Source: a virus (taxonomy: Duplodnaviria > Heunggongvirae > Uroviricota > Caudoviricetes). From it: 24,201 bases of DNA. Position 1 is the stretch's first letter; each line of letters opens with the position of its first letter. The stretch lies in IMG/VR virus record IMGVR_UViG_2545824708_000017; one strand, written 5' to 3'. The position numbers and the translations under genes were made by a program. The notes under the pieces are model-generated. The model ran no database searches. It was given only the letters and a program-made list of their open reading frames with translations, and had not been told where the DNA came from. This document shows, piece after piece, positions 690 through 24,201 of the stretch.

Positions 690-1313
690 TCAGAATTTAT
701 AGCCGACACCCACGATGAAACCGTCAGTGCGCCAGTCGCCACTGCCGGAACCTTCATAAGCAAGGTCAATAACCACCGTCTCTACGGGACTGAACTGAAT
801 CCCGGCATTCCAGGCCGGCGACAGATGACGCGCAGTATGACCATCACTGGCGGTGGTGGTCTCCTTCACATACCCCGGTTTCACTTCATCACGCCGGTAA
901 TCCTGAACACTGTCAGACCAGCGGGTGTACGCCATCCCGGCCATGCCATAGAGACTGACCCGCTCACTGAGCTGCCAGACAGGGCCGGCCATCAGACTGA
1001 CATAACGACCGCGCAGGCTTTCATAATGGAAGGTATTTTCACCCGTCTTCATCGTGTCACTTTTCTTCACCGATGCATAACTCAGCGCGACAATGCCGCC
1101 CAGGTGATCCGTGAACTCATAACGGTATTTCACATTAATCCCTTTTAAATCACCTGCACGCGCACCGGTACCGGACAATGCCGGTACGCCGCCCGGGTGA
1201 ACCTGAGCATATCCCACGGAAAATGCACCGTGTCCGCTTTCAGCCTGTGCAGGAAGGGAAATGCCTGTCAGCAGTGCGGTCCAGAATAAAATGGCTCCGT
1301 ATAAATGTCGCAT
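690..1313 (-). CDS. lom: Outer membrane protein Lom (Ail/Lom/PagC family beta-barrel)
   Basis: 207-aa ORF with signal peptide; motifs GINVKYRYEFTD and C-terminal DLAYEGSGSGDWRTDGFIVGVGYKF match lambda Lom as recalled. Sits between J and stf as in lambda. GAGAGG Shine-Dalgarno 5 nt upstream. Confidence 0.9.
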   Translation of the reverse strand: MRHLYGAILFWTALLTGISLPAQAESGHGAFSVGYAQVHPGGVPALSGTGARAGDLKGINVKYRYEFTDHLGGIVALSYASVKKSDTMKTGENTFHYESLRGRYVSLMAGPVWQLSERVSLYGMAGMAYTRWSDSVQDYRRDEVKPGYVKETTTASDGHTARHLSPAWNAGIQFSPVETVVIDLAYEGSGSGDWRTDGFIVGVGYKF

Positions 1314-4857: not shown

Positions 4858-4990
4858 AATGTTCCTCTCAATTGGTATTATTAATCGCAGTGATAGGATA
4901 TTGCACAGCTATTGCGCGATATCATCAGAACGCTGTTTGTTACCCTGTAACCAGCAAGCTCAGTCTGTTAACGGAATTAATGAGGGTTTT

Positions 4991-5518
4991 ATGAAATGTA
5001 AAATCATTGCTGCCATTGCCATGCTGACAGCAGCATCATGCGGATACGCAGCAGAACAGGAAGTCCCAATGAACCTTGTCAGTGCTGACGGAAAAGAAGT
5101 CAGCATTGGAAAAATAACCATTCAGGAGACCCCCTACGGTCTGCTGTTCACACCAGCCCTTCACTCTCTGTCTGAAGGCATTCATGGTTTTCATGTGCAC
5201 GAAAAAGGAAATTGCGCCCCGGCACTGAAAGACGGAAAACCGGTCGCAGCATTATCGGCTGGGGGTCACTTTGACCCGAAAAACACCGGCAAACATCTTG
5301 GCCCCTGGTCTCCGGATGGACACCTGGGCGACCTCCCTGCGCTGTTCGTGACGCATGACGGAAAAGCGAACTACCCGGTCCTGGCCCCGAGACTGAACTC
5401 ATTAAAAGAGATTAAAGGGCGTTCTCTCATGCTTCATGCTGGCGGTGATAACCATCATGACCATCCGGAGCCCCTGGGCGGTGGTGGTGCGAGAATGGCC
5501 TGCGGCATCATTCAATAA
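4991..5518 (+). CDS. sodC: Periplasmic Cu/Zn superoxide dismutase (SodC), prophage-borne
   Basis: 175-aa ORF from ATG 4991 (GAGGG Shine-Dalgarno at 4982-4986); N-terminal signal peptide [20 protein letters not shown]; Cu/Zn-SOD motifs [39 protein letters not shown]. The track ORF 4484..5518 includes a spurious 5' extension antisense to J. Lower GC than flanking tail genes. Confidence 0.9.
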
Positions 5519-18576: not shown

Positions 18577-18779
18577 AACCTCACTCCCAGCGGACGACGG
18601 CGACGTCGGGTTGTCCCCAGTACCGACTCCGCATCATTGATCGCCCGGTTAAGCTCATCCAGAGAAGCCGCCGTATATTCAATTCTGCGACCATCTTTCT
18701 GGACAGACACCACCCGTTTACCGGTTAATAAATCAAGGCGCGCCTGACGTAGCGCCTGTAGTTCAGCGACTGTAACCAT
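18573..18779 (-). CDS. W: Head-tail connector / head completion protein W
   Basis: 68-aa ORF; LLTGKRVVSVQKDGRRIEYTA...RRRRRP matches lambda gpW (68 aa). Confidence 0.9.
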   Translation of the reverse strand: MVTVAELQALRQARLDLLTGKRVVSVQKDGRRIEYTAASLDELNRAINDAESVLGTTRRRRRPLGVRL

Positions 18780-20691
18780 TCACTCCTCCGGACAGCTTCG
18801 CTGCCAGTTCTTTCAGGGTTGGCCGGGTCGTCTCTTCTTCCCGGGATTTTGCCAGTACAGCCAGATCAAGCTGCCAGCGTTGCACGGACACACGTAATGC
18901 CGCGTAGGCATACACCAGGCAGTCCAGCGCTTCGTTACGCCGCTTTTTGTTATCCCACAGCAGACGCATCTTTCCTTTTTCCCACTTCTCCACAAGCTCT
19001 TCCGCGACCAGTTGCTGCGCCTCTGTCTGCGAAAAAATCTCCGGATCATCAGGAAAACGGATGGCATACGACGTGGCTTCATCCGCAGGAGGGGGATCGG
19101 CTTTCATACGGGCATAGAGAATTTCTTTTGCGGTGTCCGTCCCCACTTCACACAGATACACGCCCCGCTGATTGCGGGTTTTCGGCATGGTGATCACCGG
19201 CTTGCCATAGACAGATGCGCCTTTTACCGGCAGCACCCGGAAAACACCGTGTTTTTTTGACCTCTGATAGACAATTTCACCATCGATCCCCCCGGTGTCC
19301 CAGCAGACACGGGAAATGGTCATTTCGGTTCCGTCTGCATGGCAGTATTTTTTGTTGATCGCCGCATCCACACGTAACAGCGTCTCTTCCTCATCGGGAC
19401 GGCCCATAATGATGATTTTATCCACCAGAAAGGCTTCCTCTCCCTGTGCCCATCCCCAGACATACATCTCAAAACGGTTTCGCTGCGAGTCAATGCCCGC
19501 CGTCAGATAAACCACCCGGGCAGGCACCGCCGCCGTGTAACGCACCACCTTATCCATCAGTACCTGGTGATCGAGTTTTTCGCCCACGGCCTCTTCCCAG
19601 GTCTCGCCCAGCGTGGTGTTCACAAAGGTTTTCAGGCCGTTGGGATCTTTCAGTGCATCCAGCCAGTCATAGACTATCTGTATCCAGGTGGTGAACGGAC
19701 TGTACGCCGTCCAGATATGGAACGTGATGGAGCGCGGCGGCGGAATTTCATCCCCCCGGGCGCTGAAAAACATCAGGCCGTCACGGGTCCACATACCCGT
19801 GTTTTCACAGATCCAGCGCCCGTTACTCTGGTCAAGCTCAGACTGATGGATCACGCAGCCATGATGTTCACAGAGGTAGAAAACGCTTTCGGGGCTGTCC
19901 TTCTCCCATTTAAGGCCAAAAGGCGTGGATTCATCGCCAAATTTCAGATACTGCGCCTCCCCACAGTGCGGGCAGGGCACATAGAAACGCATGAAATGCG
20001 CCGACTCGTTGGCCGCTTTTTCGATCTGGCAGGTACCTTTGATTTTAGGCGTCGAGCCGCGAATGGATTTTGGCCATACAGAGCCCTCAATACGCTTATC
20101 CCCCAGCAGGGTTGGCGAGCCCTCTTTTTCGACATCCGGCTCGAACGAGGAAAGTTCGTCATAGCAGACCACGTCCACGGATTTTTCACGGTAGTTTTTG
20201 GCGGCAGCGCCGCCCAGGCACCAGAAACCGACGCCCGATGAAAAGCGTTTCAGCGTGAGAGTATTGTCACGATGTTTACGACCCAGCCATGGGGAAAGGT
20301 CTTTCAGGCATGGCACGTTCCGAATCGTCGCCTCCACGTGAGACTTCATAAAATCTTCAGCGGCAGAATCCGTGGGCTGAAAAAGCAGACTGTTTCGGGA
20401 TTTATGCTCAATAAAATACCCGACCACCCCCAGCAACATCTTTGTATAGCCAACACGGGCAGATTTAATCAGGTTAACCGTGCGAACCTGGTCGTTACCC
20501 ATACAGTTCATAATGGCGATCTGGAATGGCAGCGTTTTCCATTCGCCCTCACCATATGAAGATTCTTTAGGCAGATAATAATTTTGATCAGCCCATTCAA
20601 CTGCCGTCATTGGTACAACCCTGACCAGAGGCTGCAGCGCAACCGAAACGGCAGCCATCATATTATTCAGTTGTTGCTCTGATATATTCAT
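18763..20691 (-). CDS. A: Terminase large subunit A
   Basis: High similarity to lambda gpA throughout (TAVEWADQNYYLPKES, KSARVGYTKMLLGV, Walker-like region, FHIWTAYSPFTTW, CWDTGGID, RRNEALDC). Start placed at MNISEQQLNN (642 aa; lambda 641 aa, starts MNIS...) rather than the track start at 20748; overlaps the Nu1 3' end by about 29 nt, as in lambda. Confidence 0.93.
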   Translation of the reverse strand: MNISEQQLNNMMAAVSVALQPLVRVVPMTAVEWADQNYYLPKESSYGEGEWKTLPFQIAIMNCMGNDQVRTVNLIKSARVGYTKMLLGVVGYFIEHKSRNSLLFQPTDSAAEDFMKSHVEATIRNVPCLKDLSPWLGRKHRDNTLTLKRFSSGVGFWCLGGAAAKNYREKSVDVVCYDELSSFEPDVEKEGSPTLLGDKRIEGSVWPKSIRGSTPKIKGTCQIEKAANESAHFMRFYVPCPHCGEAQYLKFGDESTPFGLKWEKDSPESVFYLCEHHGCVIHQSELDQSNGRWICENTGMWTRDGLMFFSARGDEIPPPRSITFHIWTAYSPFTTWIQIVYDWLDALKDPNGLKTFVNTTLGETWEEAVGEKLDHQVLMDKVVRYTAAVPARVVYLTAGIDSQRNRFEMYVWGWAQGEEAFLVDKIIIMGRPDEEETLLRVDAAINKKYCHADGTEMTISRVCWDTGGIDGEIVYQRSKKHGVFRVLPVKGASVYGKPVITMPKTRNQRGVYLCEVGTDTAKEILYARMKADPPPADEATSYAIRFPDDPEIFSQTEAQQLVAEELVEKWEKGKMRLLWDNKKRRNEALDCLVYAYAALRVSVQRWQLDLAVLAKSREEETTRPTLKELAAKLSGGVNGYSR

Positions 20692-21172
20692 CGAGTAAAT
20701 CCGGTAATTTATCCCCTGCCCGCGCACACTGATTTGCCCCCTTAGCAATAAGGGTTTTCAGATGGTCAAGATGGCGCGGTGTTAAATCAGGAAACTGTCG
20801 CTGCATGGATAAAGGGATGGAATCAAGCGTACTGGATAACGCCATTGCCAGCTTACTGAGGGCAAAAATACAGAACCCGGTGTCAATAAGTTTTCCTTTT
20901 GACACCTCATTTTTTAACTGCTGTGTAACAGCCTGTTCTGCTGTCAGTTCCCATCTGGCAATAAGCAATTTCTCCTCATAGTCGTCTTCGCTATCGCCAT
21001 CAGGCACATCGTTTTTACTTCTCCTCAGATACGATATGTAAAAATCGCGCCAGGCATCCAGATCCAGTTGCCCTCGCTTATTCGATATCGGGGCACCCGG
21101 CAATTTCTGCAATCTGCGAAGCTGGCGATCGGTCAGACTTAAATGCCTGGCAACTTCAGTCTGCGTAGCCAC
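20663..21172 (-). CDS. Nu1: Terminase small subunit Nu1
   Basis: 169-aa ORF from a GTG start; C-terminal half (DTGFCIFALSKLA...LSMQRQFPDL..RHLD.LK) matches lambda Nu1; N-terminal helix-turn-helix (TQTEVARHLSLTDRQLRRL) differs from lambda. First gene after cos. Confidence 0.8.
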   Translation of the reverse strand: MATQTEVARHLSLTDRQLRRLQKLPGAPISNKRGQLDLDAWRDFYISYLRRSKNDVPDGDSEDDYEEKLLIARWELTAEQAVTQQLKNEVSKGKLIDTGFCIFALSKLAMALSSTLDSIPLSMQRQFPDLTPRHLDHLKTLIAKGANQCARAGDKLPDLLDEYIRATTE

Positions 21173-21219
21173 TCCTCACCTCGCAAAAACTCTCACCTCA
21201 CAATCACAACAAAACCGGT

Positions 21220-21230
21220 CATGTCCGGTT
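21220..21230 (+). repeat. cosB-like R repeat 1 (catgtccggtt)
   Basis: Exact 11-mer catgtccggtt; one of three copies between Nu1 start and cosN. Confidence 0.5.
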
Positions 21231-21249
21231 TACATGTCTGTTTTTTGTT

Positions 21250-21260
21250 CATGTCCGGTT
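21250..21260 (+). repeat. cosB-like R repeat 2 (catgtccggtt)
   Basis: Exact direct repeat of the 11-mer, 30 bp from repeat 1. Confidence 0.5.
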
Positions 21261-21307
21261 CACAGAAGACCTGTTTTTATATTTTTCATATAGTTAACTT
21301 GAAGAGA

Positions 21308-21318
21308 AACCGGACATG
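21308..21318 (-). repeat. cosB-like R repeat 3 (inverted copy, aaccggacatg on plus strand)
   Basis: Exact reverse complement of the 11-mer, 38 bp from cosN; separated from repeat 2 by an AT-rich spacer. Confidence 0.5.
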
Positions 21319-21355
21319 GATCCCGGAAAATTTTCATAAATAGCGAAAACCCGCG

Positions 21356-21367
21356 AGGTCGCCGCCC
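21356..21367 (-). other. cosN: 12-nt cohesive-end sequence (GGGCGGCGACCT on minus strand)
   Basis: Minus strand 21367-21330 reads GGGCGGCGACCTCGCGGGTTTTCGCTATTTATGAAAATTTTCCGG, identical to the lambda left end as recalled; flanking cgacaggttacgg matches the lambda right end. Confidence 0.85.
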
Positions 21368-21404
21368 CGTAACCTGTCGGATCGCCGGAAAGGACCCACG
21401 AAAA

Positions 21405-21419
21405 TGATAATAATTATCA
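21405..21419. promoter_or_regulatory. Fur-box-like 7-1-7 palindrome TGATAAT-A-ATTATCA
   Basis: Perfect inverted repeat matching the Fur box core (tGATAATnATTATCa); 14 of 19 matches to the classical GATAATGATAATCATTATC. Lies about 40 bp outside cosN and about 155 bp upstream of the YlcI-like gene. Confidence 0.4.
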
Positions 21420-21574
21420 TCTACATGAGGTTTATCACGACATGTGTGTACGCCATCAAACCACGAGAAATAATCAATTATTACGCAGGTATCGTATTAA
21501 TTGATCTGCATCAAATTAGCGTAAAAGCAACTTCAGATAATACAAATCAGCAACACTGAATACGGGGCAACATT

Positions 21575-21799
21575 ATGTCATCAAAGAACAGAACCCGCAG
21601 AACAACAACCCGCAACATCCGATTTCCAAACCAGATAATTGAACAAATTAACATCGCTCTTGACCTGAAAGGTTCAGGTAATTTTTCAGCGTGGGTTATT
21701 GAAGCCTGCAGAAGAAGATTAATTAATGAAAAATATTCTCAATTTGTACCCAACAAAGACAAACACGACCAGAGCACCTGTTCAGACAGGTTTACTTAA
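21575..21799 (+). CDS. YlcI/YnfO-family small protein (DUF3950-like), prophage-encoded
   Basis: 74-aa ORF; N-terminus MSSKNRTRRTTTRNIRFPNQIIEQINIAL...GSGNFSAWVIEACRRRL closely matches E. coli prophage YlcI/YnfO as recalled; these lie next to cos/terminase in lambdoid prophages. Confidence 0.6.
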   Translation: MSSKNRTRRTTTRNIRFPNQIIEQINIALDLKGSGNFSAWVIEACRRRLINEKYSQFVPNKDKHDQSTCSDRFT

Positions 21800-21817
21800 A
21801 CGACTTATATATGACAC

Positions 21818-21848
21818 AAAAAGCGACCACTAAAGTCGCTTTTTCTTA
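21818..21848. terminator. Bidirectional rho-independent terminator between convergent genes
   Basis: aaaaagcgac(21818-21827)/gtcgcttttt(21835-21844) with 7-nt loop; A-run on one side and T-run on the other. Confidence 0.6.
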
Positions 21849-21880
21849 TGGTAACAGGCAATAACTCTCTCAGATATTTT

Positions 21881-22195
21881 TTAGCATTTTTTTGACCGCG
21901 CGTTTCCGGACGTATTCTGTTCTCCTGTCCCTTTATATCGTCGGAATACCCGCCGCTCTTCAAATCCCATTCCCAACTCAGAATGTAGTCTGTTGACCGC
22001 TTGTTTTATTTCGGTCAGGTTCACCGGTGAAACCGGAGTCCGGCGCGCCTTACGCAAACACTCTGCTCGTTTCTGTGCCGCCACTTTTCTTTTCTGGTCA
22101 TCACTTAGCTGTACCATCACTTTTGCCCATCGTTCAGCTGCTCTCCGGTACAGTCCTTTTTTCTCCAGACATTCTGCCACGTGATCATGTAGCAT
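21881..22195 (-). CDS. PerC-family transcriptional regulator homolog (Pch-like)
   Basis: 104-aa basic ORF with strong GGAGGT Shine-Dalgarno 5 nt upstream; N-terminal AECLEKKGLYRRAAERWAKVM resembles the conserved PerC/Pch N-terminal motif (recall only). Occupies the position where lambda carries bor. Confidence 0.5.
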   Translation of the reverse strand: MLHDHVAECLEKKGLYRRAAERWAKVMVQLSDDQKRKVAAQKRAECLRKARRTPVSPVNLTEIKQAVNRLHSELGMGFEERRVFRRYKGTGEQNTSGNARSKKC

Positions 22196-22240
22196 AAGTG
22201 ACCTCCGATTATCTACAGACTGCCATCCTGAATTTACCTT

Positions 22241-22318
22241 CCCTTAATGAAATAACAATAAAAAACAAACCACGCAAAAACAATAAAACAACACACAAAA
22301 AAACTAAATAATAAACAA
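22241..22318 (+). repeat. Low-complexity A/C-only tract (about 78 nt, almost no G or T) in an AT-rich ORF-free spacer
   Basis: aataacaataaaaaacaaaccacgcaaaaacaataaaacaacacacaaaaaaactaaataataaacaaaaataatcacc; strong strand compositional skew; followed by a T-rich run. Confidence 0.6.
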
Positions 22319-22659
22319 AAATAATCACCTTATTTTATTATTTTTTGAGGGAGCAATTACTGAACAAAAAACGCTGACTATATACTCAAAACCAAACAAC
22401 TATTCTGCCAATCAGGTATCATGGCAACACACGGAATTACCGTGTTTTTGCCTTCTCTGCCCATACAATACGGGCATATACTTCATTCTCTATTGTAATA
22501 TTTCTATCCATGTGCCCCACTCCATTTACCTGTAAATAATATTCAAAATATTTATCACAGAAATCGTTTTTGGCCATGAACTGAGCACACTATAAAGTCC
22601 GGAACTGACTCTTTGTTAAATTACCTTAACGTTACCAGTAACACCTTCATAACAAAACA

Positions 22660-23127
22660 TCACGGTATACACTGGGTACGGATATATTCCTGTGCTCCTT
22701 CCAGTTGCTTCTGCATTGCCATCAGCCGTTCTCTGAGGATGAAATAATCCCGTTCAGCGGTGTCTGCCAGTCGGGGGCCGGTTGCATTATCCACGCCGGA
22801 GGTGCCGGTGGCTTCACGCACGGTACCGGAGCAGGTGGCGTTGATCCGCAGGCGCTTACGACCAGCGGCAACATCAGCACGCAGAGTTTCATTTTCAGCT
22901 CTCGCATCGGCTAATTCCCTCGAGTATCTGGCATCAAGTGCAGCGACATCACGCTGGCGTATCTGCATATCAGTAATTGTCGCGTTCGCCAGCTCCAGCT
23001 CACTGGCTTTTTTATCGCGCTGCTCTTTGTAGATGATGGCGTGATCACGGTAATGATTCAGCCCCAGACTAAGCGCACCACAGGCCACCAGCAGGACAAT
23101 GATAACCACGCACAGAACACGGTTCAT
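22660..23127 (-). CDS. Rz: Inner-membrane spanin Rz
   Basis: NHYRD..I.YK.QRDK, ITDMQ.RQRDVAALDA, LRERL.AMQKQLEG match lambda Rz. Start placed at MNRVL (155 aa; GGTGGTGA Shine-Dalgarno) rather than the track start at 23184. Confidence 0.85.
   Translation of the reverse strand: MNRVLCVVIIVLLVACGALSLGLNHYRDHAIIYKEQRDKKASELELANATITDMQIRQRDVAALDARYSRELADARAENETLRADVAAGRKRLRINATCSGTVREATGTSGVDNATGPRLADTAERDYFILRERLMAMQKQLEGAQEYIRTQCIP
22722..22907 (-). CDS. Rz1: Outer-membrane spanin Rz1 (lipoprotein, embedded in +1 frame of Rz)
   Basis: 61-aa ORF wholly inside Rz; lipobox LVVSAC; Pro-rich CVKPPAPPAWIMQPAPDWQTPLNGIISSSE matches lambda Rz1. Confidence 0.75.
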   Translation of the reverse strand: MRELKMKLCVLMLPLVVSACGSTPPAPVPCVKPPAPPAWIMQPAPDWQTPLNGIISSSENG

Positions 23128-23128
23128 A

Positions 23129-23242
23129 TCACCACCAACGGATTGCCCAGACCAGAACAGCAATGGCCACAATACGAATGGCAAAAGCTGCCGCTCTTGT
23201 TAAATCCAGACTGGCTGGCGTCTCCACTTCAATGCCTTTCAT
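23129..23242 (-). CDS. Hypothetical 37-aa membrane peptide, translationally coupled to Rz (speculative)
   Basis: My translation gives MKGIEVETPASLDLTRAAAFAIRIVAIAVLVWAIRWW with one predicted transmembrane helix; GAGG Shine-Dalgarno about 9 nt upstream; TGA stop 1 nt before the Rz ATG. Below the track's length cutoff. Confidence 0.2.
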   Translation of the reverse strand: MKGIEVETPASLDLTRAAAFAIRIVAIAVLVWAIRWW

Positions 23243-23344
23243 AATGGACAACCTCAGAAAGAATCTTTTATACTTCCTCACAGGGAAAGTACCTCCCTAC
23301 CCATAATTTCTCCCTTGCCTTACTCAAGGTCAGAAAACACAAAA

Positions 23345-23374
23345 CCCCGCTTGCTGCCAACAAACGGGGTTTTT
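23345..23374. terminator. Hairpin with flanking A/T runs in the R-Rz intergenic gap
   Basis: ccccgcttg(23345-23353)/caaacgggg(23361-23369), 8 of 9 bp paired, followed by ttttt and preceded by aaaa. Confidence 0.35.
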
Positions 23375-23462
23375 ACTTTTATTCACTTAGGTTTTACCAG
23401 TTTTCAGGATTTCGTGTTATCCACCCGCGTTGGCCAACGTCATTTTTCAGGAAAATATTCTG

Positions 23463-23957
23463 CTATCTGTCGATGTCCCAGCACGCCAGCGCGCTCTCCT
23501 GGTCACGCCGTGAGACCTGACCGTAGCAATTATTTGAACGGATACGGCAGTCTCTGCCACCGTCCTTAATCCACCAGCGAATCGCCTCACAGGCACCTTT
23601 TCGATCGCCTGCATTAATTCGTTTATAAAACGTCGACGGGAAGCACTTACCGGGGCCAATGTTGTACGGACAGAATGACGCGATCCCCGCTTTCTGGGGT
23701 TCGGTCAGCGGCACCCGGATGTTTTTCTCCACCCATGCCAGCGCCTTGTCACGTTCGATGGCATTAACCCGGTCGCATTTTTCCTTTGACAGCTTCATGC
23801 CAGGAATAACAGGCTTACCATCCACCAGAATGGCACCACGGCAGATGGTCCAGATCCCCGCACCATCACGGTATGCCGTGGTGTGGTTACCTTCCTTTTC
23901 ATCCAGAAACTGGTCGAGGATTTCAGGCGCAGAAGCACCTGCACCAATCAGCGCCAG
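23463..23957 (-). pseudogene. R: Phage endolysin R (lysozyme family), 5' end truncated by IS1 insertion
   Basis: Reading frame is open from the IS1 boundary (...LALIGAGASAPEILDQFLDEKEGNHTTAYRDGAGIWTICRG...) to the stop at 23463, with no start codon for the hydrophobic N-terminus; the in-frame stop just upstream is IS1's own. C-terminus CYGQVSRRDQESALACWDIDR resembles endolysins of 933W-like prophages. Confidence 0.75.
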
Positions 23958-24201
23958 GGTAATGACTCCAACTTACTGATAGTGTTTTATGTTCAGATAA
24001 TGCCCGATGACCTTGTCATGCAGCTCCGCCGATTTTGAGAACGACAGTGACTTCCGTCCCAGCCTTGCCAGATGTTGTCTCAGATTCAGATTATGTCGCT
24101 CAATGCGCTGAGTGTAACGCTTGCTGATAACGTGCAGCTTTCCCTTCAGGCATGATTCATACAGCGGCCAGCCATCCGTCATCCATACCACGACCTCAAA
24201 G
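23958..24201 (-). mobile_element. IS1 insertion sequence, one terminus plus insB 3' end (partial; continues past window end)
   Basis: ggtaatgactccaacttactgatagtgttttatgttcagataatgcccgatgac is the reverse complement of the IS1 terminal inverted repeat; the adjacent ORF encodes the InsB C-terminus. Confidence 0.9.
23973..24201 (-). CDS. insB: IS1 transposase InsB, C-terminal part (partial)
   Basis: [72 protein letters not shown] matches IS1 InsB C-terminus from memory. Confidence 0.9.

Follow-up and report, generated by a model that had tools for sequence, protein, structure and literature searches.

A prophage-borne pchA gene of the PerC family between the lysis genes and cos, and a probable relationship between the PerC N-terminal domain and ANR proteins

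Introduction

Enterohemorrhagic Escherichia coli (EHEC) possesses five homologues of perC, three of which, pchA, pchB, and pchC (group 1), are needed for full expression of ler and espA and for adherence, whereas pchD and pchE are dispensable for ler/espA expression and adherence (PMC6265319). Activation of ler/LEE1, in the LEE (locus of enterocyte effacement), by PchA has been demonstrated experimentally (PMC4764244, PMC6265319, PMC4332760), and transcripts of the group 1 genes increase upon SOS/prophage induction (PMC6265319). Here, we describe a gene encoding the identical protein in a 24,201-nucleotide stretch of DNA from a tailed phage of the class Caudoviricetes (IMG/VR record IMGVR_UViG_2545824708_000017), referred to below as the window. 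An earlier sequence-only reading of this DNA had proposed that a PerC-family regulator, possibly acting on the host chromosome, lies at positions 21881-22195.

The founder of the Pfam family PerC (PF06069) is PerC of enteropathogenic E. coli (EPEC), encoded by perABC on the pEAF plasmid, which shares with PchA the N-terminal motif LE.KG.YRRAA.RWA..MV and the target promoter LEE1 (PMC4332760). The two proteins are 46% identical over 87 residues, the PerC sequence used for this comparison being that of an IncFIB plasmid on which perA/perB-like open reading frames (ORFs) precede it. PerC is an 89-residue, plasmid-borne product of the third operon gene behind the AraC-family gene perA, whereas PchA has 104 residues, is prophage-borne and monocistronic, and carries an extra basic tail (residues 89-104); moreover, EHEC relies on Pch more strictly than EPEC relies on PerC (PMC4764244). 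According to Fukui et al., LEE1 is activated by Pch only when it is silenced by H-NS/StpA/Hha/YdgT (PMC4764244). In the same work, Pch lowered the occupancy of H-NS in vivo and in a reconstituted complex, co-operated with Ler at other LEE promoters, and was described as not homologous to any known DNA-binding protein (PMC4764244). Translation of pchA is reportedly blocked by an anti-SD (anti-Shine-Dalgarno) element within the coding sequence (CDS) and released by the small RNA (sRNA) DicF under microaerobic, low-oxygen conditions (PMC7769764, PMC7873438, PMC9438474). Other proteins bear the same Pfam family and database name as PchA, namely PchD, PchE (PerC2/PerC3), and the PerC-like proteins of phage-inducible chromosomal islands (PICIs), but they show little or no LEE activation; PchE represses curli and flagella, and the homologue of the PICI EcCIMP1 represses LEE1 (PMC6265319, PMC11773190).

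Identity and distribution of the gene

The minus strand at 21881-22195 holds an ORF running from ATG to TAA whose 104 codons specify a basic protein (pI 10.33; 25 lysine and arginine residues versus 12 aspartate and glutamate residues), which agrees with the 104-residue basic protein of the sequence-only reading, where the strand was left unstated. That reading had noted a PerC/Pch-like N-terminal motif and had named a search against the PerC family as its check. Our search with the Pfam PerC model yielded 149.3 bits (E 3.8e-44; cut-off 22.6 bits) over model positions 1-89 of 90, and the motif was borne out by family-wide conservation. Across 47 diverse family representatives, R17, A19, A20, and W23 are invariant and A7, L10, E11, G14, R18, R22, and C46 are conserved in at least 90%; every one of these residues is present in the window protein. 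The representatives were drawn from the 82 clusters that an exhaustive HMMER search of 1.84 billion representative sequences returned at E <= 1e-3, a number so low that the PerC family must be regarded as small. The size of the protein and its location on a mobile element also follow the pattern of the family (about 90-105 residues). A chance-ORF reading of 21881-22195 was rejected on the basis of the Pfam E-value and of the conservation of the DNA, since the matches to pchA were at least 99% identical in 687 of the 688 matching E. coli records.

Comparison with the O157:H7 strain Sakai placed the gene precisely. The window protein and Sakai PchA (ECs_1091, prophage Sp4) are identical at 104/104 residues, and this identity to PchA, as distinct from PchD/PchE, assigns the gene to group 1 ('PerC1'), which is known from the EHEC O157:H7 strains Sakai and EDL933. 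From the stop codon of Rz through the leader, the CDS, and the 3' hairpin, the window differs from Sakai Sp4 by one mismatch and one T indel in a homopolymer, both of which lie in the upstream region. The leader and CDS DNA are identical to those of Sakai pchA. The identical protein is filed in RefSeq as WP_001303878.1 ('PerC family transcriptional regulator') and, among many other strains, is annotated at this position in strain 11368 of serotype O26:H11; it was also present on more than 1000 contigs of a large protein collection, bears the UniRef name 'PchABC family transcriptional regulator', and matches PHROG families that carry a transcriptional-activator annotation. Among 5426 complete E. 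coli genomes, 673 carry the 315-bp gene, typically those of O157, O26, O111, O145, and O103 strains; the median copy number per genome is three and the maximum five.

We are therefore highly confident that 21881-22195 holds a pch gene of group 1, an exact allele of Sakai pchA, and that its basic 12-kDa product acts on the host chromosome as an activator of LEE1/ler, as published for the identical protein. The proposals that prophage-encoded PerC-family proteins activate the LEE and that this phage carries a regulator of host genes thus gain support, the former from the published experiments on the identical PchA (PMC4764244, PMC6265319, PMC4332760), the latter by analogy through the 100% identity together with the reported activation of LEE1/ler. 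We infer that the same LEE1 activation would take place in the host of this window, provided that it possesses the LEE or other Pch targets. As a gene, pchA is no novelty, having been under study since 2004 and being annotated routinely and automatically by RefSeq; our result is an aid to annotation, not a new finding.

Proposed mode of action on the host

In the experiments published for the identical protein, Pch associates with H-NS-silenced, AT-rich, horizontally acquired host DNA, above all with the LEE1/ler promoter. There it lowers the occupancy of H-NS/StpA/Hha, leading to de-repression of ler, and Ler and Pch then switch on the remaining genes of the LEE type III secretion island as well as non-LEE effector genes. 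Expression of the regulator itself is controlled at several levels, comprising its orientation along the late operon, the SOS-raised transcripts, and a Shine-Dalgarno (SD) sequence that is reportedly masked and opened by DicF. The lambdoid prophage thus harbors, along with other morons (sodC, lom), a genuine master activator of the type III secretion island LEE, and because of this combination we regard the element as a virulence-regulatory prophage typical of EHEC and atypical EPEC (aEPEC) lineages.

Predicted translational switch

The bases preceding the start codon of pchA read ...AATCGGAGGTCACTT-ATG and include the SD sequence GGAGGT at 22201-22206 (minus strand), 5 nt before the ATG as read off the sequence. 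The very strong ribosome-binding site of the sequence-only reading is thus real, yet its meaning has to be refined, as the site is reportedly masked by the anti-SD of the CDS (PMC7769764, PMC7873438). In a range of folded leader-plus-CDS fragments, the SD guanines were predicted to be mostly paired. In-silico duplexes pointed to a candidate anti-SD and DicF-complement segment at 22091-22106 (minus strand). Within it, the candidate anti-SD AAGUGAUGACC (CDS nt 90-100; window 22096-22106) is predicted to pair with the SD/start-codon region at -16.4 kcal/mol. With the K-12 sequence of DicF, the best duplex of DicF(1-25) anywhere on the pchA mRNA fell at CDS nt ~79-108 (-25.1 kcal/mol), overlapping the candidate anti-SD, and an 8-nt perfect complement to the DicF 5' end, ACCAGAAA, was located at CDS nt 98-105. 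An unrestricted RNAduplex calculation between full-length DicF and the whole mRNA was discarded because the resulting duplex was unrealistically long. The predicted SD/anti-SD/DicF pairing fits the published model (PMC7769764), with the site as a candidate. Since control by an anti-SD and DicF has been published and the pairing is predicted here, the strong ribosome-binding site of pchA is best understood as half of a switch that acts on translation.

Relationship between PerC and ANR proteins

The only point of research value in this analysis is a separate lead, independent of the window, that links PerC to the ANR proteins. ANR proteins (Aar, Rnr, Cnr) are three-helix anti-activators of ~7-9 kDa that bind AraC-family regulators (PMC4983702, PMC5570504, PMC10148876), and one of them, Aar, in addition binds directly to H-NS and modulates H-NS silencing (PMC5570504). 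The literature that we searched only hints at a connection: a single paper names both PerC and the ANR family, noting ANR matches far down the BLAST lists of a LEE1-repressing PICI PerC-like protein (PMC11773190). Searches for homologous proteins with PchA and Aar as queries returned close relatives only and no diverse members; sequence diversity was supplied by the representative search for PerC and by plasmid tblastn matches for ANR. The resulting ANR alignment comprised 11 diverse members, all encoded by genes annotated on plasmids from E. coli, Serratia, Yersinia, Vibrio, and Salmonella.

Against the NCBIfam model ANR_neg_reg (NF033650), PchA scored 13.6 bits (E 0.046), short of the cut-off of 32 bits. 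The same model nevertheless matched 44 of the 47 PerC representatives in a single register (best E 5e-07, still below the cut-off), and in the reciprocal direction one of the 11 ANR proteins matched Pfam PerC (E 0.0018). Profile-profile alignment with hhalign gave a clearer signal. The PerC profile aligned with the 11-member ANR profile at a probability of 88.8% (E 2.5e-06, score 36.2, 60 columns), spanning PchA residues 1-58 and almost all of Aar. The reversed ANR alignment scored 14.8, 200 column-shuffled ANR alignments scored 9.0 +/- 2.0 on average with a maximum of 15.1, and the highest score among 100 column-shuffled PerC alignments was 14.5. By contrast, no signal appeared when PerC was compared by hhalign with Aar by itself or with a shallow alignment of four sequences of the Aar clade.

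The ANR signature residues A10, E14, A22, and W26 (PMC4983702) have a spacing identical to that of A7, E11, A19, and W23 in PerC, and ANR R47 and the Cys that follows it align with R42 of the PerC consensus (K42 in PchA) and C46, so that both families display the pattern A-x3-E-x7-A-x3-W ... R-x3-C in the same register. The signature residues A29 and W43 of ANR, however, are not conserved in PerC. Mutations at A14, E18, and A26 of Aar, the counterparts of three of the signature residues, abolish Aar activity (PMC4983702). An AlphaFold2 model of PchA built from the 47-sequence alignment (predicted local distance difference test score, pLDDT, 84) revealed three confident N-terminal helices and no helix-turn-helix (HTH); a single-sequence AlphaFold model was set aside because of its pLDDT of 51. 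An N-terminal domain of three helices, about 55 residues long, is likewise predicted for the ANR proteins, and both groups modulate the silencing of virulence genes by H-NS (PMC5570504, PMC4764244). They differ in that PerC has a conserved C-terminal region (helix 60-74, MG..FR motif) that ANR proteins lack, in the role ascribed to them, anti-activator for ANR and activator for PerC/Pch, and in that direct H-NS binding was shown for Aar but reported to be absent for PchA. From these profile comparisons, a remote homology between the N-terminal three-helix domain of PerC and ANR is probable. By the curated definition, PchA nevertheless falls outside the ANR family, since its score does not reach the cut-off and it lacks two signature residues.

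Evaluation of alternative explanations

Three other accounts of the gene have to be weighed against that of a group 1 activator of LEE1/ler. We give practically no credence to the view that it is an inactive paralogue of the PchD/PchE (PerC2/PerC3) type without effect on the LEE. Paralogues of this kind are indeed found alongside in the same genomes and share the database name (PMC6265319, PMC4332760), but this reading is refuted by the complete identity of the protein to PchA, whose activity as a group 1 member has been demonstrated. An improbable, though less remote, account holds that pchA serves the phage first, for instance by countering H-NS on the AT-rich prophage or by tuning late or packaging expression, with activation of the LEE as a secondary co-option. 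The gene does run in the direction of the late operon, lies between the lysis genes and cos, and is enhanced by SOS (PMC6265319), genes of the PerC family are found in PICIs and plasmids of LEE-less bacteria such as Salmonella, Klebsiella, and Pantoea (PMC11773190), and several phage families in PHROGs match PchA. On the other side, the identical protein strongly affects LEE and effector genes and is required for adherence of EHEC (PMC4764244, PMC6265319), and the literature cited reports no phage phenotype for pch. The persistence of pchA at high identity in degraded prophages, including the present one with its IS1-disrupted endolysin gene, also argues for selection through the host.

The third account concerns how the protein works. 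It sees PchA as a divergent ANR-type protein and not as a classical DNA-binding activator, with an N-terminal domain that contacts H-NS-family and/or AraC-family proteins, a reading that we hold only tentatively; the accompanying idea that the C-terminal helix and basic tail provide association with DNA or the nucleoid is speculative to the same degree. It draws on the ANR_neg_reg matches across the PerC representatives, the hhalign result with its clean controls, the reciprocal PerC match, and the shared A/E/A/W spacing together with the loss of Aar activity in the three counterpart mutants (PMC4983702). The three N-terminal helices without an HTH in the PchA model, the direct binding of H-NS by Aar (PMC5570504), and the location of perC in one operon with the AraC-family gene perA (PMC4332760) point in the same direction. 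Several observations speak against it, including the sub-threshold score of PchA, the missing signal with the shallow Aar-clade alignment, and the lack of conservation of A29 and W43. Moreover, unpublished observations cited by Fukui et al. describe PchA as neither co-precipitating with H-NS nor binding Ler (PMC4764244), chromatin immunoprecipitation (ChIP) places Pch at many DNA sites (PMC4764244), and small helical domains that are homologous need not share their partners. The wider proposition that PerC/Pch forms a divergent branch of ANR, in which an ANR-like three-helix domain was joined by a C-terminal helix and a basic tail and counters H-NS by direct contacts, accordingly appears to us possible but doubtful. 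Were it true, 'virulence activators' and 'antivirulence anti-activators', now treated as opposites, would share one lineage, and kinship with ANR would explain why some PerC-like proteins repress the LEE. If confirmed, the link would also offer a concrete mechanism for the displacement of H-NS by Pch/PerC, which the literature still describes as unresolved.

Prophage context of pchA

The late genes in the window all lie on the minus strand, and pchA is co-oriented with them. In the late direction, the order is endolysin, Rz with embedded Rz1, a 46-codon ORF, pchA, an opposite-strand ylcI/ynfO-like gene, cosN, nu1, and terminase A. The last lysis genes upstream of pchA are the spanin gene Rz (22660-23184, minus strand; Pfam Phage_lysis, 1.2e-48) and, embedded in it, Rz1 (22722-22907, minus strand); annotated relatives have the names 'Rz1 family lipoprotein' and 'lysis protein' here. 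Beyond pchA lies cosN at 21356-21367 (minus strand), an exact copy of the lambda 12-mer GGGCGGCGACCT and its sole exact match in the window, just upstream of nu1 (20663-21172, minus strand; Pfam Phage_Nu1) and followed by terminase A (18763-20748, minus strand). The location between the lysis genes and cos given by the sequence-only reading is thereby confirmed.

That reading had also placed the gene where lambda carries bor, which holds for the position, the interval from Rz to cos, and fails for the orientation, as bor in lambda is encoded by the complementary strand. The two accessory genes affect the phenotype of the host and share the niche between Rz/Rz1 and cos, but bor encodes a lipoprotein and runs against the late genes, whereas pchA encodes a cytoplasmic regulator and runs in the late-gene direction. 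A bor homologue was rejected, since there is no sequence relationship, the only family match is PerC, and the orientation differs; the two are positional analogues only. Within its lambdoid prophage, pchA is carried as a 'moron' between Rz and cos.

The endolysin gene (23463-~23957, minus strand; Pfam Phage_lysozyme) is disrupted by the insertion sequence (IS) IS1, which occupies 23958-24201 up to the end of the window, with an ORF for the C-terminus of InsB at 23973-24191 and a terminal repeat abutting 23957. Comparison with relatives indicated that IS1 replaces the first ~41 bp of the endolysin gene, including its start codon, and the gene is thus 5'-truncated or split from its start. Because of this disruption, the prophage is probably lysis-defective, and the retention of an intact pchA in an IS1-hit prophage is consistent with selection through the host.

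On the other side of pchA, a YlcI/YnfO-family (DUF3950) gene at 21575-21799 on the plus strand (Pfam DUF3950, 1.3e-17; NCBIfam YlcI_YnfO_N, 1.6e-08) is convergent with pchA, intact in the window, and annotated in relatives as well. Between the two, folding of both strands revealed a terminator-like hairpin at 21818-21844 with A and T runs at its flanks, with energies of -14.7 kcal/mol on the minus strand (z -3.6) and -11.2 kcal/mol on the plus strand (z -3.2); 0/200 shuffled sequences folded as well. It looks like a bidirectional terminator that separates the convergent genes. A promoter scan found promoter-like sites no more often than in shuffled sequence and did not locate the promoter of pchA, but the scan also overlooked the clear 3' hairpin, which was established by folding. 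An Rfam scan of 20500-24201 (E <= 1) detected no known sRNA or leader family, the only match being a rimP leader at chance level. The AT-rich intergenic and leader region from Rz to pchA (22207-22659, minus strand) holds a conserved ORF of 46 amino acids at 22437-22577 (minus strand), which matches phrog_2157, a family of unknown function, over its full length (E 2.7e-37). This ORF is identical in Sakai Sp4 and carries no annotation in the RefSeq records examined.

Related prophages and accessory genes

No exact match to the whole window was present among the complete genomes searched. The closest relative was a prophage of strain B19374 (NZ_CP142915.1), 99.1% identical over positions 1-23957. 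Just past the tail-fibre genes of this prophage, in a region outside the window (positions 1-364 of the relative's locus), it is adjoined by the type III secretion effector gene nleB2, which suggests an attaching-and-effacing background. The arrangement in B19374 itself is suggestive of an 'exchangeable effector locus' prophage that carries effectors in an attaching-and-effacing strain.

The pchA gene of Sakai Sp4 has the same leader and 3' hairpin as that of the window and likewise lies beside Rz/Rz1 in a lambdoid prophage, but the surroundings differ. In the window, the lysis genes, pch, the ylcI-like gene, cos, nu1, and A are collinear, whereas Sakai Sp4 has the segment from the lysis genes to pchA in inverted orientation with respect to the terminase genes. 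IS629 directly follows pchA in Sakai Sp4 and interrupts the ylcI/ynfO-like gene, while in the window it is the endolysin gene that was hit, by IS1; accordingly, homology between the two breaks at ~21718, inside the YlcI/YnfO-family gene, at the IS629 insertion. The holin-endolysin-Rz-pchA segment of Sakai Sp4 (locus 23366-26376) is oriented opposite to the terminase and head genes (29840 onward) and is flanked by IS629 and ISEc8. This arrangement points to an IS-mediated inversion, and the collinear order of the window is presumably ancestral.

Two further morons were assigned by their position in the 99.1%-identical B19374 prophage and in Sakai Sp4. An outer-membrane protein gene of the Ail/Lom family lies in the tail region (690-1313, minus strand), and sodC, encoding a Cu/Zn superoxide dismutase, lies at ~4990-5518 on the plus strand, opposite the tail genes and just upstream of J in the direction of phage transcription.
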